Shown: positions 10,117 through 19,717 of the stretch, piece by piece
How positions within the stretch are numbered: position 1 is the stretch's first letter
How the letters are laid out: each line of letters opens with the position of its first letter
Assembly: GCA_002938205.1 (NCBI GenBank)
Contig: PTKZ01000006.1
Span: forward strand, 4,805-68,804
Reading direction: 5' to 3'
DNA: 64,000 nucleotides
Origin: Alphaproteobacteria bacterium MarineAlpha5_Bin5
Lineage (GTDB): Bacteria > Pseudomonadota > Alphaproteobacteria > HIMB59 > GCA-002718135
The notes under the pieces: model-generated
Seen by the model: the letters and a program-made list of their open reading frames with translations, nothing else
What the model was told of the DNA's origin: nothing
Database searches by the model: none
Made by a program: the position numbers and the translations under genes

Positions 10117-11367
10117 ATGAGTGAAAAAAAAAATCCGTCTATATTTACCCCTGTATTAATTGGTGGTAGTTTAATTTTACTTATAAGCTTTGCAATACGT
10201 TCTACTTTTGGTTTATTTCAAATCCCAATTGCAGAACAATTTATGTGGGCACGTTCGGAATTCTCACTTGCAATAGCTATACAAAACTTAGCTTGGGGTA
10301 TTGGAACTCCAATTTTTAGTGCATTTGCAGAAAAATTTGGTGACAGAAAAGCAATCACAGTCGGTCTTTTATTGTATGCGCTAGGTGTTTTTATCAGTAG
10401 TACTGCATCTTCACCAGAAGCTCATCAATTTTTAAATGTAATAATAGGTTTTGGAATTGCAGGTAGTGGTTTTGGTCCTATATTGGCTGTTGTTGGGCGC
10501 TCTTCATCTCCAGAAAAAAGATCTCTAGCTCTTGGAGTTACAACTGCTGCGGGATCAGGTGGACAAGTAGTAGGTCCTCCTCTAGCCGCTATACTTTTAA
10601 ATACAATGCAATGGTCTTCGGTATTTATTGTTTTTACAATAATTAGTTTGCTAACTATAATATTAGTTCCTCTATTAAAAACTACCCCAACAAAAACTAA
10701 AAATAAAATTGAAGAAAATCTTAGTGATGCATTAATTGATGCAGCAAAAGATCCCACCTATATTATGCTATTTTTAGGATTTTTTTCTTGTGGTTTTCAA
10801 TTAGCTTTTATTACTGCTCATTTCCCTGCATTTATAGCTGAAGCAAGTAGTCCAATTATACAAGGAAGTCTAATCAGTTTTGTTTGTAATTCTGTTACTT
10901 CGTTAGGTGCTCTTTCAATAGCTTTAATTGGTTTATTCAATATAGCAGGTTCAATAGTTGCTGGAGCTATGGGGAAAAATTTTACTAAAAAATATTTACT
11001 TTCAATAATTTATACTGGCCGAACAATCGCAGCAATATTATTTATTATGTTACCAATAACTCCAAATTCGGTTGTAATTTTCTCAATTGTAATGGGTTCA
11101 TTATGGTTAGCAACAGTGCCTCTAACTTCAGGAATTATTGCATATATTTATGGACTAAAATATATGGGTACTCTTTATGGAATTGTTTTTCTATCTCATC
11201 AAATAGGTTCATTTGTAGGTGTTTGGTTAGGTGGTTTATTTTATGACATTTATGGAAGTTATAATGTTGTATGGTGGGTTGGTATTGGGGTTGGTGCTTT
11301 CTCAGCAATTATACATTTACCTGTTAAAGAAATTCCATTATCAGAAAGAAAATTAAAAATAGCATAG
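10117..11367 (+). CDS. MFS transporter
   Basis: A 416-aa protein with ~12 hydrophobic segments in a 6+6 layout around a central hydrophilic loop. This is a family-level call only. Confidence 0.7.
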   Translation: MSEKKNPSIFTPVLIGGSLILLISFAIRSTFGLFQIPIAEQFMWARSEFSLAIAIQNLAWGIGTPIFSAFAEKFGDRKAITVGLLLYALGVFISSTASSPEAHQFLNVIIGFGIAGSGFGPILAVVGRSSSPEKRSLALGVTTAAGSGGQVVGPPLAAILLNTMQWSSVFIVFTIISLLTIILVPLLKTTPTKTKNKIEENLSDALIDAAKDPTYIMLFLGFFSCGFQLAFITAHFPAFIAEASSPIIQGSLISFVCNSVTSLGALSIALIGLFNIAGSIVAGAMGKNFTKKYLLSIIYTGRTIAAILFIMLPITPNSVVIFSIVMGSLWLATVPLTSGIIAYIYGLKYMGTLYGIVFLSHQIGSFVGVWLGGLFYDIYGSYNVVWWVGIGVGAFSAIIHLPVKEIPLSERKLKIA

Positions 11368-13658: not shown

Positions 13659-13721
13659 ATTGATATGATTATCTCATTCAATTAAAATTTAACAGTATTA
13701 GAAAAAAAATTTTCAGTTTGA

Positions 13722-13831
13722 GTATATTGTGATCTGTAAGGCAATATAAAAACTTAAGATAAATTTTTTGGCAGTTTAATTGTCCTGCCCAGCGAGATTC
13801 GAACTCACGACCCCCAGATTAGGAATCTGGT
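13722..13831. repeat. 110-nt direct repeat, copy A (tRNA-Arg downstream flank plus degenerate 3' half of the tRNA)
   Basis: It aligns by hand to 15359-15468 with 9 mismatches in 110. Confidence 0.9.
13781..13831 (-). pseudogene. orphan 3' half of tRNA-Arg(CCU): anticodon stem-loop, T arm and a mutated acceptor strand, no CCA
   Basis: tgtcctgcccagcgagattcgaactcacgacccccagattaggaatctggt compares with the intact gene at 15418-15468. Homology stops on the 5' side of the anticodon stem. Confidence 0.85.
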
Positions 13832-14988: not shown

Positions 14989-15339
14989 ATGGCTTTTAAA
15001 TTATTCAATCAAATCACAAATGAAGAACTACCTTCTATGGAAGTTGAAGGGGTTAATGCTTATCTTAAGGATTTTTCTGTTTCACAAGACTCTAATAAGC
15101 CTATAACAAGTGGCTTGTTTCGCTTAAAAGCCGGTGAATCACTAAAATATACTTATACTTATCATGAAATGAAATTCATAGTTGATGGAAGCTTTACTTT
15201 AGAAGATGAAACTGGACAAAAAGAAACTGTAAAAGCAGGTGATTTGCTGTACTTTCCAAAAGGAACAGAAATGACATTTACAACAGACGACTTCGGTTTA
15301 GGATTCTTTTGTGGTCAACGAGGTGAAGGAGAAGCATAA
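14989..15339 (+). CDS. small cupin-domain protein (DUF861/EutQ-like)
   Basis: A 116-aa single beta-barrel pattern (HEMKFIVDGSFTLEDETGQKETVKAGDLLYFPKGTEMTF). There is no obvious HxH metal motif. Confidence 0.5.
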   Translation: MAFKLFNQITNEELPSMEVEGVNAYLKDFSVSQDSNKPITSGLFRLKAGESLKYTYTYHEMKFIVDGSFTLEDETGQKETVKAGDLLYFPKGTEMTFTTDDFGLGFFCGQRGEGEA

Positions 15340-15358
15340 AATAATTTCCTCAGTGTGG

Positions 15359-15468
15359 GTATATTGTGGCCAGTAAGAAAATATAGAAACTTAAGATAAA
15401 TTTTTTGGCAGTTTAATTGGCGTGCCCGGCGAGATTCGAACTCACGACCCCCAGATTAGGAATCTGGT
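15359..15468. repeat. 110-nt direct repeat, copy B (downstream flank plus 3' half of intact tRNA-Arg copy 1)
   Basis: See copy A at 13722-13831. Confidence 0.9.
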
Positions 15469-15494
15469 GCTCTATCCTACTGAGCTACGGGCAC
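15418..15494 (-). tRNA. tRNA-Arg (anticodon CCU), CCA encoded
   Basis: The reverse complement is GTGCCCGTAGCTCAGTAGGATAGAGCACCAGATTCCTAATCTGGGGGTCGTGAGTTCGAATCTCGCCGGGCACGCCA. It folds by hand into a cloverleaf: acceptor GTGCCCG/CGGGCAC, D stem GCTC/GAGC, anticodon stem CCAGA/TCTGG with loop TTCCTAA, T stem GTGAG/CTCGC with loop TTCGAAT. Confidence 0.9.
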
Positions 15495-15640
15495 TGCTTG
15501 TTTTTCAAAACTTTTTCTAGTCCGACTGAACTTTAAAAAGTTCATGGTACCACCATTTTTTCAAAATAACATATATTACAGAGAATGGCGATGGATTTAC
15601 TATCAACATTCCTCGTGGTTGGTGGTAGAATAAGAATGAA

Positions 15641-16636
15641 ATGAAAGTTGATTTAAATAAATGGTACAGATGTAAAGTTGATAAAGAAACATATAAAAGT
15701 TTAACAAAAAAATCTGATTATCTTGGTCTGAGACATGTTTTGACCTGGTTGTTTTTTTTAATTTTGATTGGTTATTTTGCTTTTATAACTTGGGGTACAT
15801 TGTGGTCTTTTTTTTGGTTTTTTATATATGGAAATATATTTATGGCATGTGACCCAATTCGACATGATTGTCAGCACAATTTAGCCTTTAAATCAAAATG
15901 GTTAAACACATTTTTTTACCAATTAACTTCCTTTATGTTTAGTTATGAACCTGTGCGTTGGAGGTGGAGCCATTTTAGACATCACAGTCATACTCTATCT
16001 GTCGAAGGAATTTATGATCACGAAATACAAATTACTAAACCTACTGATTTATTCTTAGTTCTTTTAATGCATATTCCTGGAGGAAATATCTTAATTATTC
16101 ATAAAACTTTTCTATTTTTTCATTTAGAAACAATTAAACATGCTATTGGAATAGTTACACCAATAATGGAAGATTGTATCCCGGCAAAAGAAAGATCTAA
16201 ATGTTGGGTTTCAGCTCGAATTCATGTTTCTTTATGGATTTTAATAATAAGTTCTTCATTTTTCTTTCAAACTTGGCTTCCTGCACTTTACTTACTTTTA
16301 CCATTTGTTTATGGAACTACATTTATGCAAACCATACATTTTATGCAGCATGCAGGTTTAAAAAATAATGTGAAGGATCATCGTTTATCTGTGAGAACAG
16401 TTAAATTGAATCCTATTTTTAGCTTTTTAAATTGGAATATGGAATATCATTTGGAACATCACATGTTTCCAACTGTTCCTTCTTATAATTTAAAAAAATT
16501 AAATAAAGTTATAAAAGATCAATTACCAAAACCCAAAAAAGGGATATTTGATGCTTATAAAGAAATTATTCCTACTTTAATTAAACAATCAAAAAACCCT
16601 CATTATATTTTAAATGTAGATTTGCCCAAAACTTAA
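15641..16636 (+). CDS. fatty acid desaturase family membrane protein
   Basis: Three His boxes (HDCQH, HFRHHSH, HLEHHMF) are interspersed with TM segments. Confidence 0.8.
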   Translation: MKVDLNKWYRCKVDKETYKSLTKKSDYLGLRHVLTWLFFLILIGYFAFITWGTLWSFFWFFIYGNIFMACDPIRHDCQHNLAFKSKWLNTFFYQLTSFMFSYEPVRWRWSHFRHHSHTLSVEGIYDHEIQITKPTDLFLVLLMHIPGGNILIIHKTFLFFHLETIKHAIGIVTPIMEDCIPAKERSKCWVSARIHVSLWILIISSSFFFQTWLPALYLLLPFVYGTTFMQTIHFMQHAGLKNNVKDHRLSVRTVKLNPIFSFLNWNMEYHLEHHMFPTVPSYNLKKLNKVIKDQLPKPKKGIFDAYKEIIPTLIKQSKNPHYILNVDLPKT

Positions 16637-16707
16637 CAAAAATTGGAATGAGTAACTTATAGCAGATTAGGAATCTGGTGCTCTATCCTAGTATTAAATA
16701 TGGACAC
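16621..16707. repeat. 87-nt direct repeat, copy 1 (about 42 nt of non-tRNA sequence plus the 5' half of tRNA-Arg)
   Basis: It aligns by hand to 18866-18952, sharing tttg..caaaacttaac and aatga..taa.ttata blocks followed by the tRNA 5' half. It includes the desaturase stop codon. Confidence 0.7.
16663..16707 (-). pseudogene. orphan 5' half of tRNA-Arg(CCU)
   Basis: cagattaggaatctggtgctctatccta is a 28-nt exact match to the intact genes. The remainder, up to ..tggacac, is degenerate. Confidence 0.85.
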
Positions 16708-16709
16708 GA

Positions 16710-17561
16710 TTAATTCATCTGAATATACATAGATGTCAGTAAATGACTTTGATTAAGATAAGGAAAATTATTTTTTAAAATATCAAAATAATATAATTGC
16801 AAATATTTTCCTGCATAGATTATTTTATATCTATTATTATACAATAAAAAAGAATGGACCATATAACTTTCATTCCAAAATGAATTTCTTTTTTTGTTTT
16901 CTATTACATCTTTTGAATAATTTTTTGGAAAATGAATATCATGCCAGTGAATAATTGCTCCTTTATTTTTGATAATGGGAATAACTTCTAATATTTCAAA
17001 GTTAACATCACTTTCAAATTTCGAGATATGAGATGAATCAATAAATAGAAAATCTAAATCTTTAAAAAAGTCTAATGGCATATCTTGTATTTTTTTATTA
17101 ATAATTTCAAAGTTATCACTAATTTTTGATTTAAAAATTTTATTATATGGATTAATAGAGAATAGATTGCCCTCAAATCCTTTTTTTTTATTTTCATTAA
17201 GTGCTTTTAAAATAATTTTTGTAGTATCGCCTGATCCAATTTCAACAATTTTTTTTGGTTTTTTTTGTCTTATAAAAGCATACAGCATAAATGAATCTAC
17301 TAAAGAAAGACCATCATTTTTATAAGGGATGAATTCATGTGAAAAATTTTTACATAAAATATTAATATTAGCTATTTGATACTTAATATTAAGATTAACA
17401 CCATCTGTTTTGAATACTTTTTCGTAATCTTTATTTTGAATTTCATATAAATCAGGAATTGGAGAATAAAAATGTGCTCTAGTAATATGAATTTTAAAAT
17501 ATTTTTCAAAAAATAAAAAAATAAAATTATAAATATTTAATATTAATTTTTTCATCATCAC
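16710..17561 (-). CDS. class I SAM-dependent methyltransferase (CmcI/Methyltransf_24-like)
   Basis: Motif I is IVEIGSGDTT, and LFIDSSH followed by GAIIHWHDI is typical of that subgroup. Confidence 0.6.
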   Translation of the reverse strand: MMMKKLILNIYNFIFLFFEKYFKIHITRAHFYSPIPDLYEIQNKDYEKVFKTDGVNLNIKYQIANINILCKNFSHEFIPYKNDGLSLVDSFMLYAFIRQKKPKKIVEIGSGDTTKIILKALNENKKKGFEGNLFSINPYNKIFKSKISDNFEIINKKIQDMPLDFFKDLDFLFIDSSHISKFESDVNFEILEVIPIIKNKGAIIHWHDIHFPKNYSKDVIENKKRNSFWNESYMVHSFLLYNNRYKIIYAGKYLQLYYFDILKNNFPYLNQSHLLTSMYIQMN

Positions 17562-17646
17562 CTCAATATATCGTCTACTTTTAAATGCATATACTAAAAT
17601 TCAGTGAGGCATGGATAGAGTCGACTGGTTAATTGTTATTTTTTAC

Positions 17647-17720
17647 CGTGCCCGGCGAGATTCGAACTCACGACCCCCAGATTAGGAATCTGGTGCTCTA
17701 TCCTACTGAGCTACGGGCAC
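17647..17720 (-). tRNA. tRNA-Arg (anticodon CCU), second copy identical to 15421-15494; CCA not encoded
   Basis: The 74 nt are identical to copy 1 from the discriminator to the 5' end. The 3' flank reads GTA instead of CCA. Confidence 0.88.
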
Positions 17721-17886
17721 GCCTTGTACATGCTAGATAATTTCAACCTTAGAGATTTACCATTTAAATTTGAGTATCACATAAGTACCACAAATCTAAT
17801 TGTGAATTTATCATAAGATTTATTATTGAGCGAGTTTGTTTTATTTAATTCACTCTTACGTAAGAGATCAGTGTAAAAAATAGAAG

Positions 17887-18744
17887 TTAATGAGTCATTT
17901 TATTAAAAACATAAGTATTAAATAAGTATTTAAGAAATGTTAAAAGATAAAAATAATTACTTTTTTTTAATATATTTTTAATTCTAAAACTTTTAACTCC
18001 CAATGGAAAAAAAGGGATAAAGCAAGTACCATGATAAGAATATTTTACTTTTTTAAAATTATTATGTTTTAAATTATTTAATATTTTTTCTAAATTTATG
18101 TCATTAATATAGTAATCCATATAATAAGATAGTCTTTGAATATTTGAAGGAGAGCTAATTTTATTAACACCGTGAAATGAAACTGCCGAATGTATAAAAA
18201 TTATTAATCGATTTGGTAGGGGTTCAATTTTTTTAATAATATTTAAACCACATTGATCGAATAGCAATGTCTCCCCTCCCCAAGATTTTTCCCAAGTTGG
18301 AGAACAATAGTAAATTGCATTTGCAATATGCAAATCTCCATATTTAGAATGTGAATGATCAACATGAGAACCTAGAACACCTTCGTTGTTCATGCTATGA
18401 AAAGGGTAATAACCTCCATAATTTTCCCATTCACTCAATGATATTACTTTCATATCGCCAATAAATTTTTGAATTAATTTGATAAATGAATTACCTCCTA
18501 AAATATCTACTGGGTATCTAGAATATTTTGTAAGATCTTTATCTCCATAAACTTTTTTGTTTAATTCTAAGTATGTGCTAAAATTCTTCTTTATATTTTT
18601 TAATCCCCCTGCATTTTGAAATTCTTTATTTATACTTAAGAAAAGTTCTTCAGACAGGAAATTATCAATTACTACATGTGGAAATGGGTGGATATTCCAT
18701 TCTAAATTTAATTTTTCAATTTCTTTGTTCAATGTTTCAATCAT
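17887..18744 (-). CDS. 2OG-Fe(II) oxygenase superfamily protein
   Basis: GSHVDHSH supplies the HxD motif, with a distal His in SFHGVNKI and GGETLLFD between them, fitting a double-stranded beta-helix hydroxylase. Confidence 0.6.
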   Translation of the reverse strand: MIETLNKEIEKLNLEWNIHPFPHVVIDNFLSEELFLSINKEFQNAGGLKNIKKNFSTYLELNKKVYGDKDLTKYSRYPVDILGGNSFIKLIQKFIGDMKVISLSEWENYGGYYPFHSMNNEGVLGSHVDHSHSKYGDLHIANAIYYCSPTWEKSWGGETLLFDQCGLNIIKKIEPLPNRLIIFIHSAVSFHGVNKISSPSNIQRLSYYMDYYINDINLEKILNNLKHNNFKKVKYSYHGTCFIPFFPLGVKSFRIKNILKKSNYFYLLTFLKYLFNTYVFNKMTH

Positions 18745-18865
18745 AGATTAATGTTATTTATTAACTATTTACACTAACGCTGTTAAAAAGAAAGATAAGA
18801 TTTGTATTCTTATTTTTAAAAGAGGATGCAACTTTTTTTTGATATATGTTTCCAATAATTAAATT

Positions 18866-18952
18866 TTTGTTCAAAACTTAACTTTTCCCAAATGAAATAA
18901 TTATAACTCCGGTTTAGGAATCTGTTGCTCTATCATACTAAGATACGGACAC
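18866..18952. repeat. 87-nt direct repeat, copy 2 (non-tRNA block plus a degenerate 5' half of tRNA-Arg)
   Basis: See 16621-16707. Confidence 0.7.
18911..18952 (-). pseudogene. degenerate orphan 5' half of tRNA-Arg(CCU)
   Basis: ggtttaggaatctgttgctctatcatactaagatacggacac compares with agattaggaatctggtgctctatcctactgagctacgggcac. Confidence 0.75.
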
Positions 18953-19018
18953 TTAATTAAATATATTATAAATAAATCAATTGTTGAAACATATATCTAA
19001 TGTAGTTAAAATTAATAT

Positions 19019-19717
19019 ATGAAAAAAATTGCTGCTTTTATTGCATCTGGAAGTGGAATGGGCGCAGATGCTGCAAAACATTTATCATCAAAAGGATATG
19101 AAATAGGAATTATGTCCTCATCTGGTAAAGGTGAAGAGCTTGCCAAAAAACTAAATGGGGTGGGATTTACCGGCTCTAATCTTTCAACTAAAGATATTGA
19201 AAATTTTATTAATAAAGTATCTTCAAAGTTTGGAAAAATTGATGTACTTGTAAATAGTGCTGGTCATGGACCAAAAGGGGAGATATTAGAAATTTCAGAT
19301 GATGAATGGATTAGTGGAATGGAAGTCTACTTTCTCAATGTGGTTCGTCCAATCAGATTAGTTACACCAATTATGCAAAAACAAAAAAATGGTTCTATCA
19401 TAAATATTTCAACTTTTGCAACATTTGAACCTGAGTCAGCTTTTCCTACCTCTGGTGTTTTTCGTGCGGGACTTGCCTCTTTTATAAAACTTTATTCAAA
19501 CAAATATGCAAAAGACAATATAAGAATAAATAATATATTACCGGGATTCATTGATAGTCTTCCAGAAAAAGAAATTTTTAAAAAAAGAATTCCTTTACAA
19601 AGATATGGGAAAGTTAGTGAAATTTCCGCTGTTGTTGAATTACTTGCCTCTGAAGGTGGATCCTACATTACTGGTCAAAATATACGTGTTGATGGTGGTA
19701 TTACTAAATCTGTTTAA
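19019..19717 (+). CDS. short-chain dehydrogenase/reductase family protein, atypical active site
   Basis: It has a Rossmann N-terminus (ASGSGMG), NSAG and the C-terminal ITGQNIRVDGG. By hand alignment, F-R-A-G-L sits where Y-x-x-x-K is expected. Confidence 0.7.
   Translation: MKKIAAFIASGSGMGADAAKHLSSKGYEIGIMSSSGKGEELAKKLNGVGFTGSNLSTKDIENFINKVSSKFGKIDVLVNSAGHGPKGEILEISDDEWISGMEVYFLNVVRPIRLVTPIMQKQKNGSIINISTFATFEPESAFPTSGVFRAGLASFIKLYSNKYAKDNIRINNILPGFIDSLPEKEIFKKRIPLQRYGKVSEISAVVELLASEGGSYITGQNIRVDGGITKSV

Follow-up and report, generated by a model that had tools for sequence, protein, structure and literature searches.

How could individual accessory genes come to collect next to a tRNA gene in a marine bacterium with a streamlined genome and no visible recombinase? 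The question is raised by a 64,000-nucleotide (nt) stretch of DNA, hereafter the window, that spans positions 4805-68804 of contig C52 (PTKZ01000006.1) of Alphaproteobacteria bacterium MarineAlpha5_Bin5 (assembly G000; 1.58 Mb, 92% complete) and has a G+C content of 27%. In the usual description, SAR11-type bacteria have next to no mobile elements. The window carries an array of two complete tRNA-Arg(CCU) genes and three partial copies, with one or two genes lodged between successive copies, and we propose a mechanism for its formation. Two 87-nt units of the array, at 16621-16707 and 18866-18952, are probably attL-type scars, that is, tRNA-Arg(CCU) 5' halves cut off at the anticodon loop by an integrative element, which now persist as decayed, serial, integrase-less remnants with 5'-half polarity. 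An earlier note on this DNA had already suggested that the orphan halves are junction scars of elements that regenerate the tRNA with their own 5' half, and its proposal is borne out by an integrase-bearing family in the same genus and in SAR11-like metagenomes, one arm of which is found in relatives at the site of unit 2.

Both complete genes lie on the minus strand. The first (tRNA1, 15418-15494) has its CCA encoded, is called by ARAGORN and scores 68.9 bits with Rfam; the second (tRNA2, 17646-17721), called by ARAGORN and Rfam, is complete to the discriminator base and lacks an encoded CCA. An Rfam scan of this region of the window returns these two tRNAs only. Their sequences are identical from the 5' end through the discriminator base, and the pair constitutes an 81-nt repeat covering the whole tRNA at 98% identity. 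The partial copies are on the same strand. Orphan 5' half 1 (16663-16706) matches the tRNA exactly over 28 nt (16663-16690) and then runs on as a degenerate acceptor and D-arm part to the tRNA 5' end at 16706, so that the whole 5' half is represented, and its homology to the tRNA stops just 3' of the anticodon loop. Orphan 5' half 2 (18909-18952) is a full-length 5' half, 84% identical to the tRNA, and adjoins the host flank. Each orphan half has a complete tRNA downstream on the same strand, half 1 being followed by tRNA1 and half 2 by tRNA2. The third relic (13703-13831) is a direct repeat that comprises 83 nt of the tRNA 3' flank, the 3' half and the anticodon stem-loop; it is 89% identical to 15338-15468 across 131 nt and begins at the first base of the anticodon stem. 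The anticodon stem-loop is the sole overlap common to all five copies and pieces, and it is on this one 17-nt hairpin that the junctions cluster. Most genomes of the genus possess a single tRNA-Arg(CCU), and two of them (G019 and G036) have orphan 5' halves in addition, whose ends lie inside the anticodon loop or immediately past it; in these genomes, as in the window, the homology ends 0-6 nt after the anticodon.

The element that makes such junctions can be recognized in relatives. Metagenome contigs were scanned for a tRNA-Arg 5' half with a 3' continuation other than the normal one, yielding 38 low-GC, SAR11-like contigs. In at least 24 of the 38, the half is directly followed by a conserved stretch of about 140 nt, here called the J arm, which is matched by nhmmer with E values down to ~1e-42 for full-length arms and terminates in a double GGTGGTAC repeat (GGTGGTACTCATGTGGTACTCA or GGTGGTACCATGGTGGTACCA). 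Next after J, some 25-80 nt on, eight contigs carry an integrase gene, and the three complete copies scanned encode a tyrosine integrase of 381-383 amino acids (aa) with the PF13356 (arm-binding), PF14659 and PF00589 domains. Other contigs have cargo only after J, namely ABC transporters, an oxidoreductase and a MatE pump. Two contigs preserve both ends of the element, with an orphan half and J followed by a complete tRNA 1.5 kb (L181) or 4.6 kb (L190) downstream, and a third (L198) shows two serial scars, the first of them with a truncated integrase. Within the genus, a 52%-identical integrase stands behind a tRNA-Arg(ACG) 5' half and a homologous arm in three genomes (G082, G086 and G034), and N-terminal integrase remnants stand behind the same half and arm in two more (G073 and G003). 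The window's own genome has a scar at tRNA-Arg(ACG) (contig C14, 839-1063, minus strand), where a 5' half that includes the anticodon loop leads into a J-like arm, a double GGTGGTACCAT repeat, the tRNA-proximal part of a module termed U and, of a further 5' half, just the first 16 nt; no tRNA-Arg(ACG) gene is called by ARAGORN in this assembly.

The sister strains place this family at the locus itself. The core-genome edge of the array is formed by a conserved host flank and a short-chain dehydrogenase (SDR) gene (18953-19717, plus strand). In L293-L295, whose SDR protein is 90% identical to that of the window, an orphan 5' half lies 55 nt upstream of the SDR gene and runs into a complete J arm (nhmmer E 2.8e-32), exactly at the chromosomal site of the window's unit 2. 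A further locus, L297 (GCA_902576125.1, CACGUF010000004.1, 5693-7699), has a major facilitator superfamily (MFS) transporter gene 57 nt from the SDR gene, with neither a tRNA nor an island between them. The counterparts of these genes in the window lie at 10117-11367 (MFS) and 19019-19717 (SDR), and the intervening 7.6 kb, with its tRNA copies and cargo, is absent from L297, which represents an empty site in a more distant relative. The absence of this stretch implies that the chromosomal position of tRNA-Arg(CCU) varies within the group.

Remnants of the same family are also detectable upstream of the two complete tRNA genes. The region upstream of tRNA1 (15495-15640, minus strand, 146 nt) is the sole strong match in the window to a profile of module U (E 8.5e-14), and it contains a GGTGGTACCAT repeat at 15543-15556. 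Homologues of U are found upstream of complete tRNA-Arg(CCU) genes, of once-regenerated orphan halves (G036, L198 and L167) and of tRNA-Arg(ACG). The orphan halves that stand beside integrases carry a different, host-type upstream flank with a TATAAT box, and because of this difference we read U as probably element-borne, arriving together with the new 5' half. No match to the U profile occurs upstream of tRNA2; 47-76 nt upstream of that gene is instead a J-type double repeat (GTGGTACTTATGTGATACTCA, 17768-17797, minus strand), which is the best match to the J profile in the whole window (E 0.025) and recurs at about equal distance upstream of the regenerated tRNA in L181. A search of the window with the arms of the tRNA-Arg(ACG) type returned only the repeat in U. 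The two complete genes thus bear two subtypes of the upstream repeat of the family, which fits the suggestion of the earlier note that the cassettes derive from two members of one element family. Given their presence on both arms and the arm-binding domain of the integrase, we read the double repeats as putative arm-type integrase sites, that at 17768-17797 belonging to a second subfamily, and regard the GGTGGTACCAT and GGTGGTACTCAT repeats as candidate arm sites for the PF13356 domain.

These observations suggest the following scheme. The attachment site of the element would consist, in order, of U, the element's own tRNA 5' half, the anticodon loop and the J arm, with the tyrosine integrase and its arm-binding domain encoded some 25-80 nt past J. 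Integration, presumably catalyzed by this integrase family, would leave on one side the host 5' half, the loop, J, the integrase and the cargo, and on the other U and the element 5' half joined to the host 3' half, restoring a working tRNA. Repeated hits on the regenerated tRNA, followed by deletions, would then yield orphan halves, single cargo genes and at least one intact tRNA. What would be left of this history in the window are the two orphan halves, U at tRNA1, the J-type double repeat at tRNA2 and three stranded cargo genes, the integrases and J arms being gone. The window is accordingly described here as containing relics and not an intact element, because both the integrase and the J arm were tested for and are absent.

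Several observations weigh against this explanation. No tyrosine recombinase is found in the window, and neither the window nor the 92%-complete assembly contains a J-family integrase or a J arm, nhmmer detecting no J beside either orphan half, so that the attribution rests on relatives, on U and on the repeat remnants; the assembly being incomplete, an integrase elsewhere in the genome is possible. The bases adjacent to the loop at both orphan halves are not J-like (p ~0.7), and the J-profile match upstream of tRNA2, with its E value of 0.025, is short (30 nt). A complete tRNA2 is not expected from a pure chain of 5'-half replacements; it would require an extra event, either the arrival of an element that supplied the 3' half or an entire tRNA copy, or homologous crossing-over inside the 81-nt repeat. 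Finally, the orphan half of G036 lies downstream of a full tRNA, an arrangement that the simple model does not predict. The only tyrosine recombinase of the assembly is a 352-aa protein encoded on contig C39 (L062, 2735-3793), a contig of 4.1 kb, beside a Sir2/cobB gene, a pairing that is also seen in G019; it shows no tblastn match to the J-family integrases.

The cargo genes of the array are accessory. Read in the direction of the tRNA, the array begins with the host flank, orphan half 2, 163 nt, a 2-oxoglutarate-Fe(II) (2OG-Fe(II)) oxygenase gene (17887-18744, minus strand; domain match), the repeat-bearing upstream region and tRNA2, and continues with the gene of a Methyltransf_24 protein (16710-17561, minus strand; domain match), orphan half 1, 25 nt, a fatty-acid desaturase gene on the opposite strand (15641-16636, plus; PF00487, E 4.6e-29), U, tRNA1 and the conserved 3' neighbours. 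Between the tRNA copies there are one or two genes each: homocysteine S-methyltransferase with a cupin, the desaturase, the Methyltransf_24 protein and the oxygenase. Among the 104 other genomes of the genus searched, the Methyltransf_24 gene has no counterpart and the best matches of the oxygenase, present in three genomes, are 27-31% identical. The contexts of oxygenase homologues vary and have no junction in common. The cupin and homocysteine S-methyltransferase genes 3' of tRNA1 are conserved in G035, with synteny seen in G035 and G037, and the methyltransferase at this position is also kept in a complete genome of the sister family. The order of genes in the array is identical in the ten contigs shown, which come from independent public assemblies, and the array is for this reason not an assembly artefact.

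If the orphan halves are scars, one may ask whether the sequence that abuts them is the conserved end of the element. The earlier note had described some 42 nt of shared non-tRNA sequence in each unit and taken it for such an end. The coordinates and lengths of the units, the exact 28-nt tRNA match and the overlap with the end of the desaturase gene all hold, but the extent of the similarity does not. Each unit starts with a 17-nt block A, TTTG(CC/TT)CAAAACTTAAC, which in unit 1 (16621-16637, plus strand) supplies the desaturase codons DLPKT, the stop and 1 nt, its first 16 nt being the last of the gene, and in unit 2 (18866-18882, plus strand) is non-coding. The two copies are identical at 15 of 17 positions and lie at the same offset from the tRNA part. 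An in-register (±1) match of this quality was obtained in 4 of 50,000 random natural sequence pairs from the window (p ~1e-4), and a local alignment of the same score in any register has p ~0.005-0.009. Global alignment of the 42 or 43 non-tRNA nt gives p ~0.003, carried by block A alone. The spacers of 25-26 nt (16638-16662 and 18883-18908), including a second block in which 11 of 15 positions had been counted as shared, align at chance level (p ~0.6-0.8), the 9-10 nt between the two blocks being unrelated across units; only the 15-17 nt beside the anticodon loop show a marginal likeness (p ~0.02-0.06). The flank on the other side of the units is not significantly similar (p ~0.13). The real shared non-tRNA stretch is hence about 17 nt, perhaps with a weak second patch, and not 42. 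Two other origins for these sequences were rejected: the spacers do not resemble decayed tRNA 3' halves (p ~0.6-0.7), and neither they nor block A are homologous to the natural 3' flank of the tRNA (global alignment, p ~0.23-0.77). The octamer AAACTTAA does occur at about the same offset in the flanks thus compared, which we leave as a coincidence. It has 12 plus-strand copies in the window, and those at 13750, 15387, 16629 and 18874 each fall 23-27 nt past the end of a tRNA piece; these four sites are both copies of the tRNA 3' flank and both 87-nt units, flank-to-unit alignments being otherwise not significant.

The desaturase gene accounts for block A in unit 1. Orthologues of the desaturase at 88-95% identity were found in other contexts, and in close metagenome orthologues the bases of block A are nearly unchanged. 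One of them (L162, 95% identical protein) keeps the block A codons as well as 11 nt past the stop, with no tRNA piece nearby; since the block is kept in contexts free of tRNA, it travels with the gene and not with the junction, and in unit 1 it is the native 3' end of the desaturase. The first 11 nt of the unit-1 spacer likewise travel with the gene, and the remaining 14-15 nt lie beside the loop. Desaturases of the genus have related C-terminal ends (e.g. ..VDLPKEN and ..LSVPN), but the idea that block A is a conserved C-terminal motif of the family was rejected, given that other endings are seen at the 29 paralogue loci of the genus and that only close orthologues share the block. No tRNA piece was found beside any of these 29 loci.

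Two metagenome contigs, L167 and L224, carry the desaturase cassette flanked on one side by an orphan half that retains the initial 18 nt of J and on the other by U with a second 5' half, the latter hit in turn by another J-bearing element. The desaturase of L167 is 93% identical to that of the window, and the layout of both contigs matches the succession of unit 1, desaturase, U and tRNA1. The cassette thus appears to be a reduced element from which the integrase and most of J have been deleted. The 14-15 nt beside the loop in unit 1 occupy the position of the first 18 nt of J in L167 and, as noted above, are not J-like. The part of U next to the desaturase start (15595-15633; ..caacattcctcgtggttggtgg..) recurs on several contigs of G063, in five copies at 90-100% identity and two at 86-87%, and is also found downstream of the desaturase orthologue of L162, which suggests either a small dispersed repeat or a leader sequence common to these sites.

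It follows that the shared sequence is very improbable as the conserved end of one element family at both junctions, a reading that we regard as largely refuted. It could draw on the in-register match of block A, on the marginal loop-adjacent likeness and on the p value of the whole 42 nt, but unit 1 owes its block A to the native coding sequence of the desaturase, which orthologues retain where there is no tRNA, and the real end of the family, J, is a different sequence that is undetectable beside the units, the unit-2 spacer included. The earlier note had expected its junction motif in other genomes and held that absence from their tRNA-Arg loci would refute it. When 105 genomes from the genus and 187 from the order were searched, both counts including the window's own genome, block A with the anticodon loop proved to be confined to that genome: block A followed by the anticodon loop occurs in G000 and is absent from the 104 other genomes of the genus and the 186 other genomes of the Pelagibacterales; block A is also absent from the other orphan-half junctions (G019, G036, J-type and K-type). 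What was taken for a shared element end is therefore mostly the tail of a gene.

For the block in unit 2 there are two further explanations. Unit 2 may be a decayed, older copy of the reduced cassette junction (an orphan half, a short spacer and the 3' end of a desaturase), in which case the units would be truly homologous outside the tRNA as well, the shared piece being a gene relic. We consider this a tenable possibility that stops somewhat short of probable. It would account for both the in-register match and the loop-adjacent likeness, the reduced desaturase cassette recurs beside orphan halves in L167 and L224, and at both mismatches in the block the plus strand has C in unit 1 but T in unit 2, the change expected from AT-biased decay. 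On the other hand, three desaturase contexts conserve the 11 nt past the stop, to which unit 2 has nothing related, no further desaturase relic is found in the next 120 nt in any frame, and the explanation is post hoc. Most of the remaining probability falls to a chance match. Under neither explanation is block A a recombination site.

Homologous or unequal recombination between the tRNA-derived repeats offers a more general alternative, in which no site-specific enzyme is involved and the array arises by Campbell-type insertion of circles excised from other SAR11 genomes, by tandem duplication or by flank-mediated replacement of alleles. Some features of the locus agree with it. The repeats exceed the tRNA, extending to 131 nt with 83 nt of flank in one case and to 81 nt around the whole tRNA in the other, and no integrase is present at the locus. 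Comparison with the strain L296 points the same way. Across the SDR and dusA genes L296 shares 98.96% identity with the window, and it agrees at 65 of 66 positions of the flank, but at the unit-2 position it has a near-intact 5' half that agrees with that of the window at only 34 of 42 positions. Identity breaks off precisely where the 5' end of the tRNA begins, which implies that islands or orphan halves have been exchanged between strains. Homologous recombination by itself is nonetheless an unlikely explanation, because the junctions cluster at the anticodon loop across genomes, intermediates that bear an integrase share the same junction, and recombination between repeats cannot account for how an orphan half first came about. 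Such recombination is more probably a partner of the integrase than a substitute for it.

The near-intact half of L296 also bears on the age of the scars. The greater decay of unit 2 had been taken to mark it as the older junction, an argument that is unsafe when a strain 99% identical in the adjacent genes carries a near-intact half at the same position. Decay of unit 2 is no simple clock, and divergence of orphan halves is in general an unreliable one; unit 2 is still topologically the outermost junction.

A prophage origin was considered as well. Pelagiphages of the HTVC019P type insert in the middle of tRNA genes in SAR11 and supply the 5' part, HTVC120P does so at a tRNA-Arg, and some pelagiphage integrations end with two copies of the tRNA (Zhao et al., bioRxiv 10.1101/410191). 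The scars could then be remnants of such prophages, with which they share the polarity, the kind of tRNA and the two-tRNA outcome. This is nevertheless highly unlikely. A search of 50,697 phage records returned no match to the J arm, the best phage match of the integrase is a 36%-identical protein of an Aeromonas phage, the cargo behind J arms consists of transporters and oxidoreductases and not of phage genes, and the cargo of the window has weak or no phage matches. Neither phage genes nor a phage attachment site (attP) were found at the junction, and no contig in IMG/VR carries this tRNA half: scans with a 26-mer returned none and scans with a 20-mer high-GC tRNAs only. A phage origin of the cargo, of the C39 integrase and of the J arm was rejected in each case on matches that are weak or absent. 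Two other candidates were discarded. The array is not an integron cassette array, as its boundaries are tRNA pieces and not attC-like hairpins and the window has no tyrosine recombinase, and a group I intron in the loop of tRNA-Arg(CCU) is contradicted by the lack of a T-arm or 3' half within 700 nt past the J arms, where an integrase open reading frame stands instead.

Further variants of these junctions were observed. An uninterrupted series of U, 5' half, loop and J is present in L204, L229 and L248 and in the second copies of L198 and L167, and an integrase follows in L204, L229, L248 and L198; this form could be the excised, attP form of the element or a tandem array. A second type of junction, found in L171, L205, L220, L222 and L238, has the same 5' half followed by a different conserved sequence (aattatttaagg...), to which L171 adds, 2 kb further on, a distant match to integrases (28% identity); these junctions may belong to another element family that uses the same site. 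In G019 (contig C15; L058, 4276-9077), a decayed orphan tRNA-Arg(CCU) 5' half is located at the end of an ABC-transporter operon, with a urease operon (ureD, A, B, C, F and G) directly behind the half. Junctions of tRNA-Arg(CCU) 5' halves occur outside SAR11 too: a high-GC viral contig (L101, IMGVR_UViG_2840493055_000001) has a 5' half that ends right after the anticodon stem and continues into unrelated DNA.

The proposed mechanism accounts for the accumulation of single accessory genes by the tRNA, and the candidate enzyme and its DNA arms, both identified from relatives, are directly testable. It also indicates that the upstream region of a tRNA gene and its 5' half can be foreign in origin. 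A broader proposition, which we find quite possible if not yet probable, is that SAR11-type bacteria, despite their usual description, host an active, non-phage family of small integrative islands, composed of an arm-binding tyrosine integrase with transporter or enzyme cargo, that enter the anticodon loops of tRNA-Arg(CCU) and tRNA-Arg(ACG) with reversed polarity. Their hits would replace the promoter-proximal region and the 5' half of the tRNA, and serial hits followed by decay would build cassette-like arrays.

Among the closest known counterparts are P4-like tyrosine-integrase islands at tRNA genes, in which an integrase with PF13356, PF14659 and PF00589 likewise lies beside the attachment site and direct repeats of the tRNA bound the island. 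Classical P4-like islands restore the 3' part of the tRNA, a 3' fragment remaining at their distal boundary. The present family has the opposite polarity and crosses over at the anticodon loop.

Reversed polarity has precedents, and to call regeneration by the 5' half unusual, as had been done for this locus, overstates the case: it is rare in general, but it has already been reported for HTVC019P-type pelagiphages, including one at a tRNA-Arg, and for other elements. There are documented, if rare, cases in which an element recombines with the 5'-distal part of a tRNA gene (Zhao and Williams 2002, J Bacteriol 184:859, cited by PMC6563490). Such elements, as presented in that citing article, resemble those described here in that they carry the tRNA 5' part and displace that of the host, so that the regenerated gene comes to stand at the opposite end of the island; in our case host, integrase and arms are SAR11-specific, and the window keeps decayed scars only. 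The pelagiphages share with the present family the SAR11 hosts, the core in the middle of the tRNA, the element-borne 5' part, a case at tRNA-Arg and the occasional two copies of the tRNA (bioRxiv 10.1101/410191), and differ from it in that phage genes are absent here, the integrase is of the island type (PF13356) and J is absent from the phage records searched. An island-type integrase of the J family, the J and U arms and the polarity of the repeats were not found in that preprint, nor in the available parts of PMC6563490, PMC11796062 and bioRxiv 10.64898/2026.04.03.716430. In the last two, as far as their available parts go, SAR11 islands are described with partial tRNA repeats and an almost complete absence of canonical mobile elements (Microbiome 2025, PMC11796062), and a model of tRNA-anchored accretion is proposed by both, for the main hypervariable region in the case of bioRxiv 10.64898/2026.04.03.716430. 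Which half of the tRNA is repeated, which integrase family is involved and which arms it uses are not reported in those parts, and it is these components that the relatives of the present array allow us to identify.

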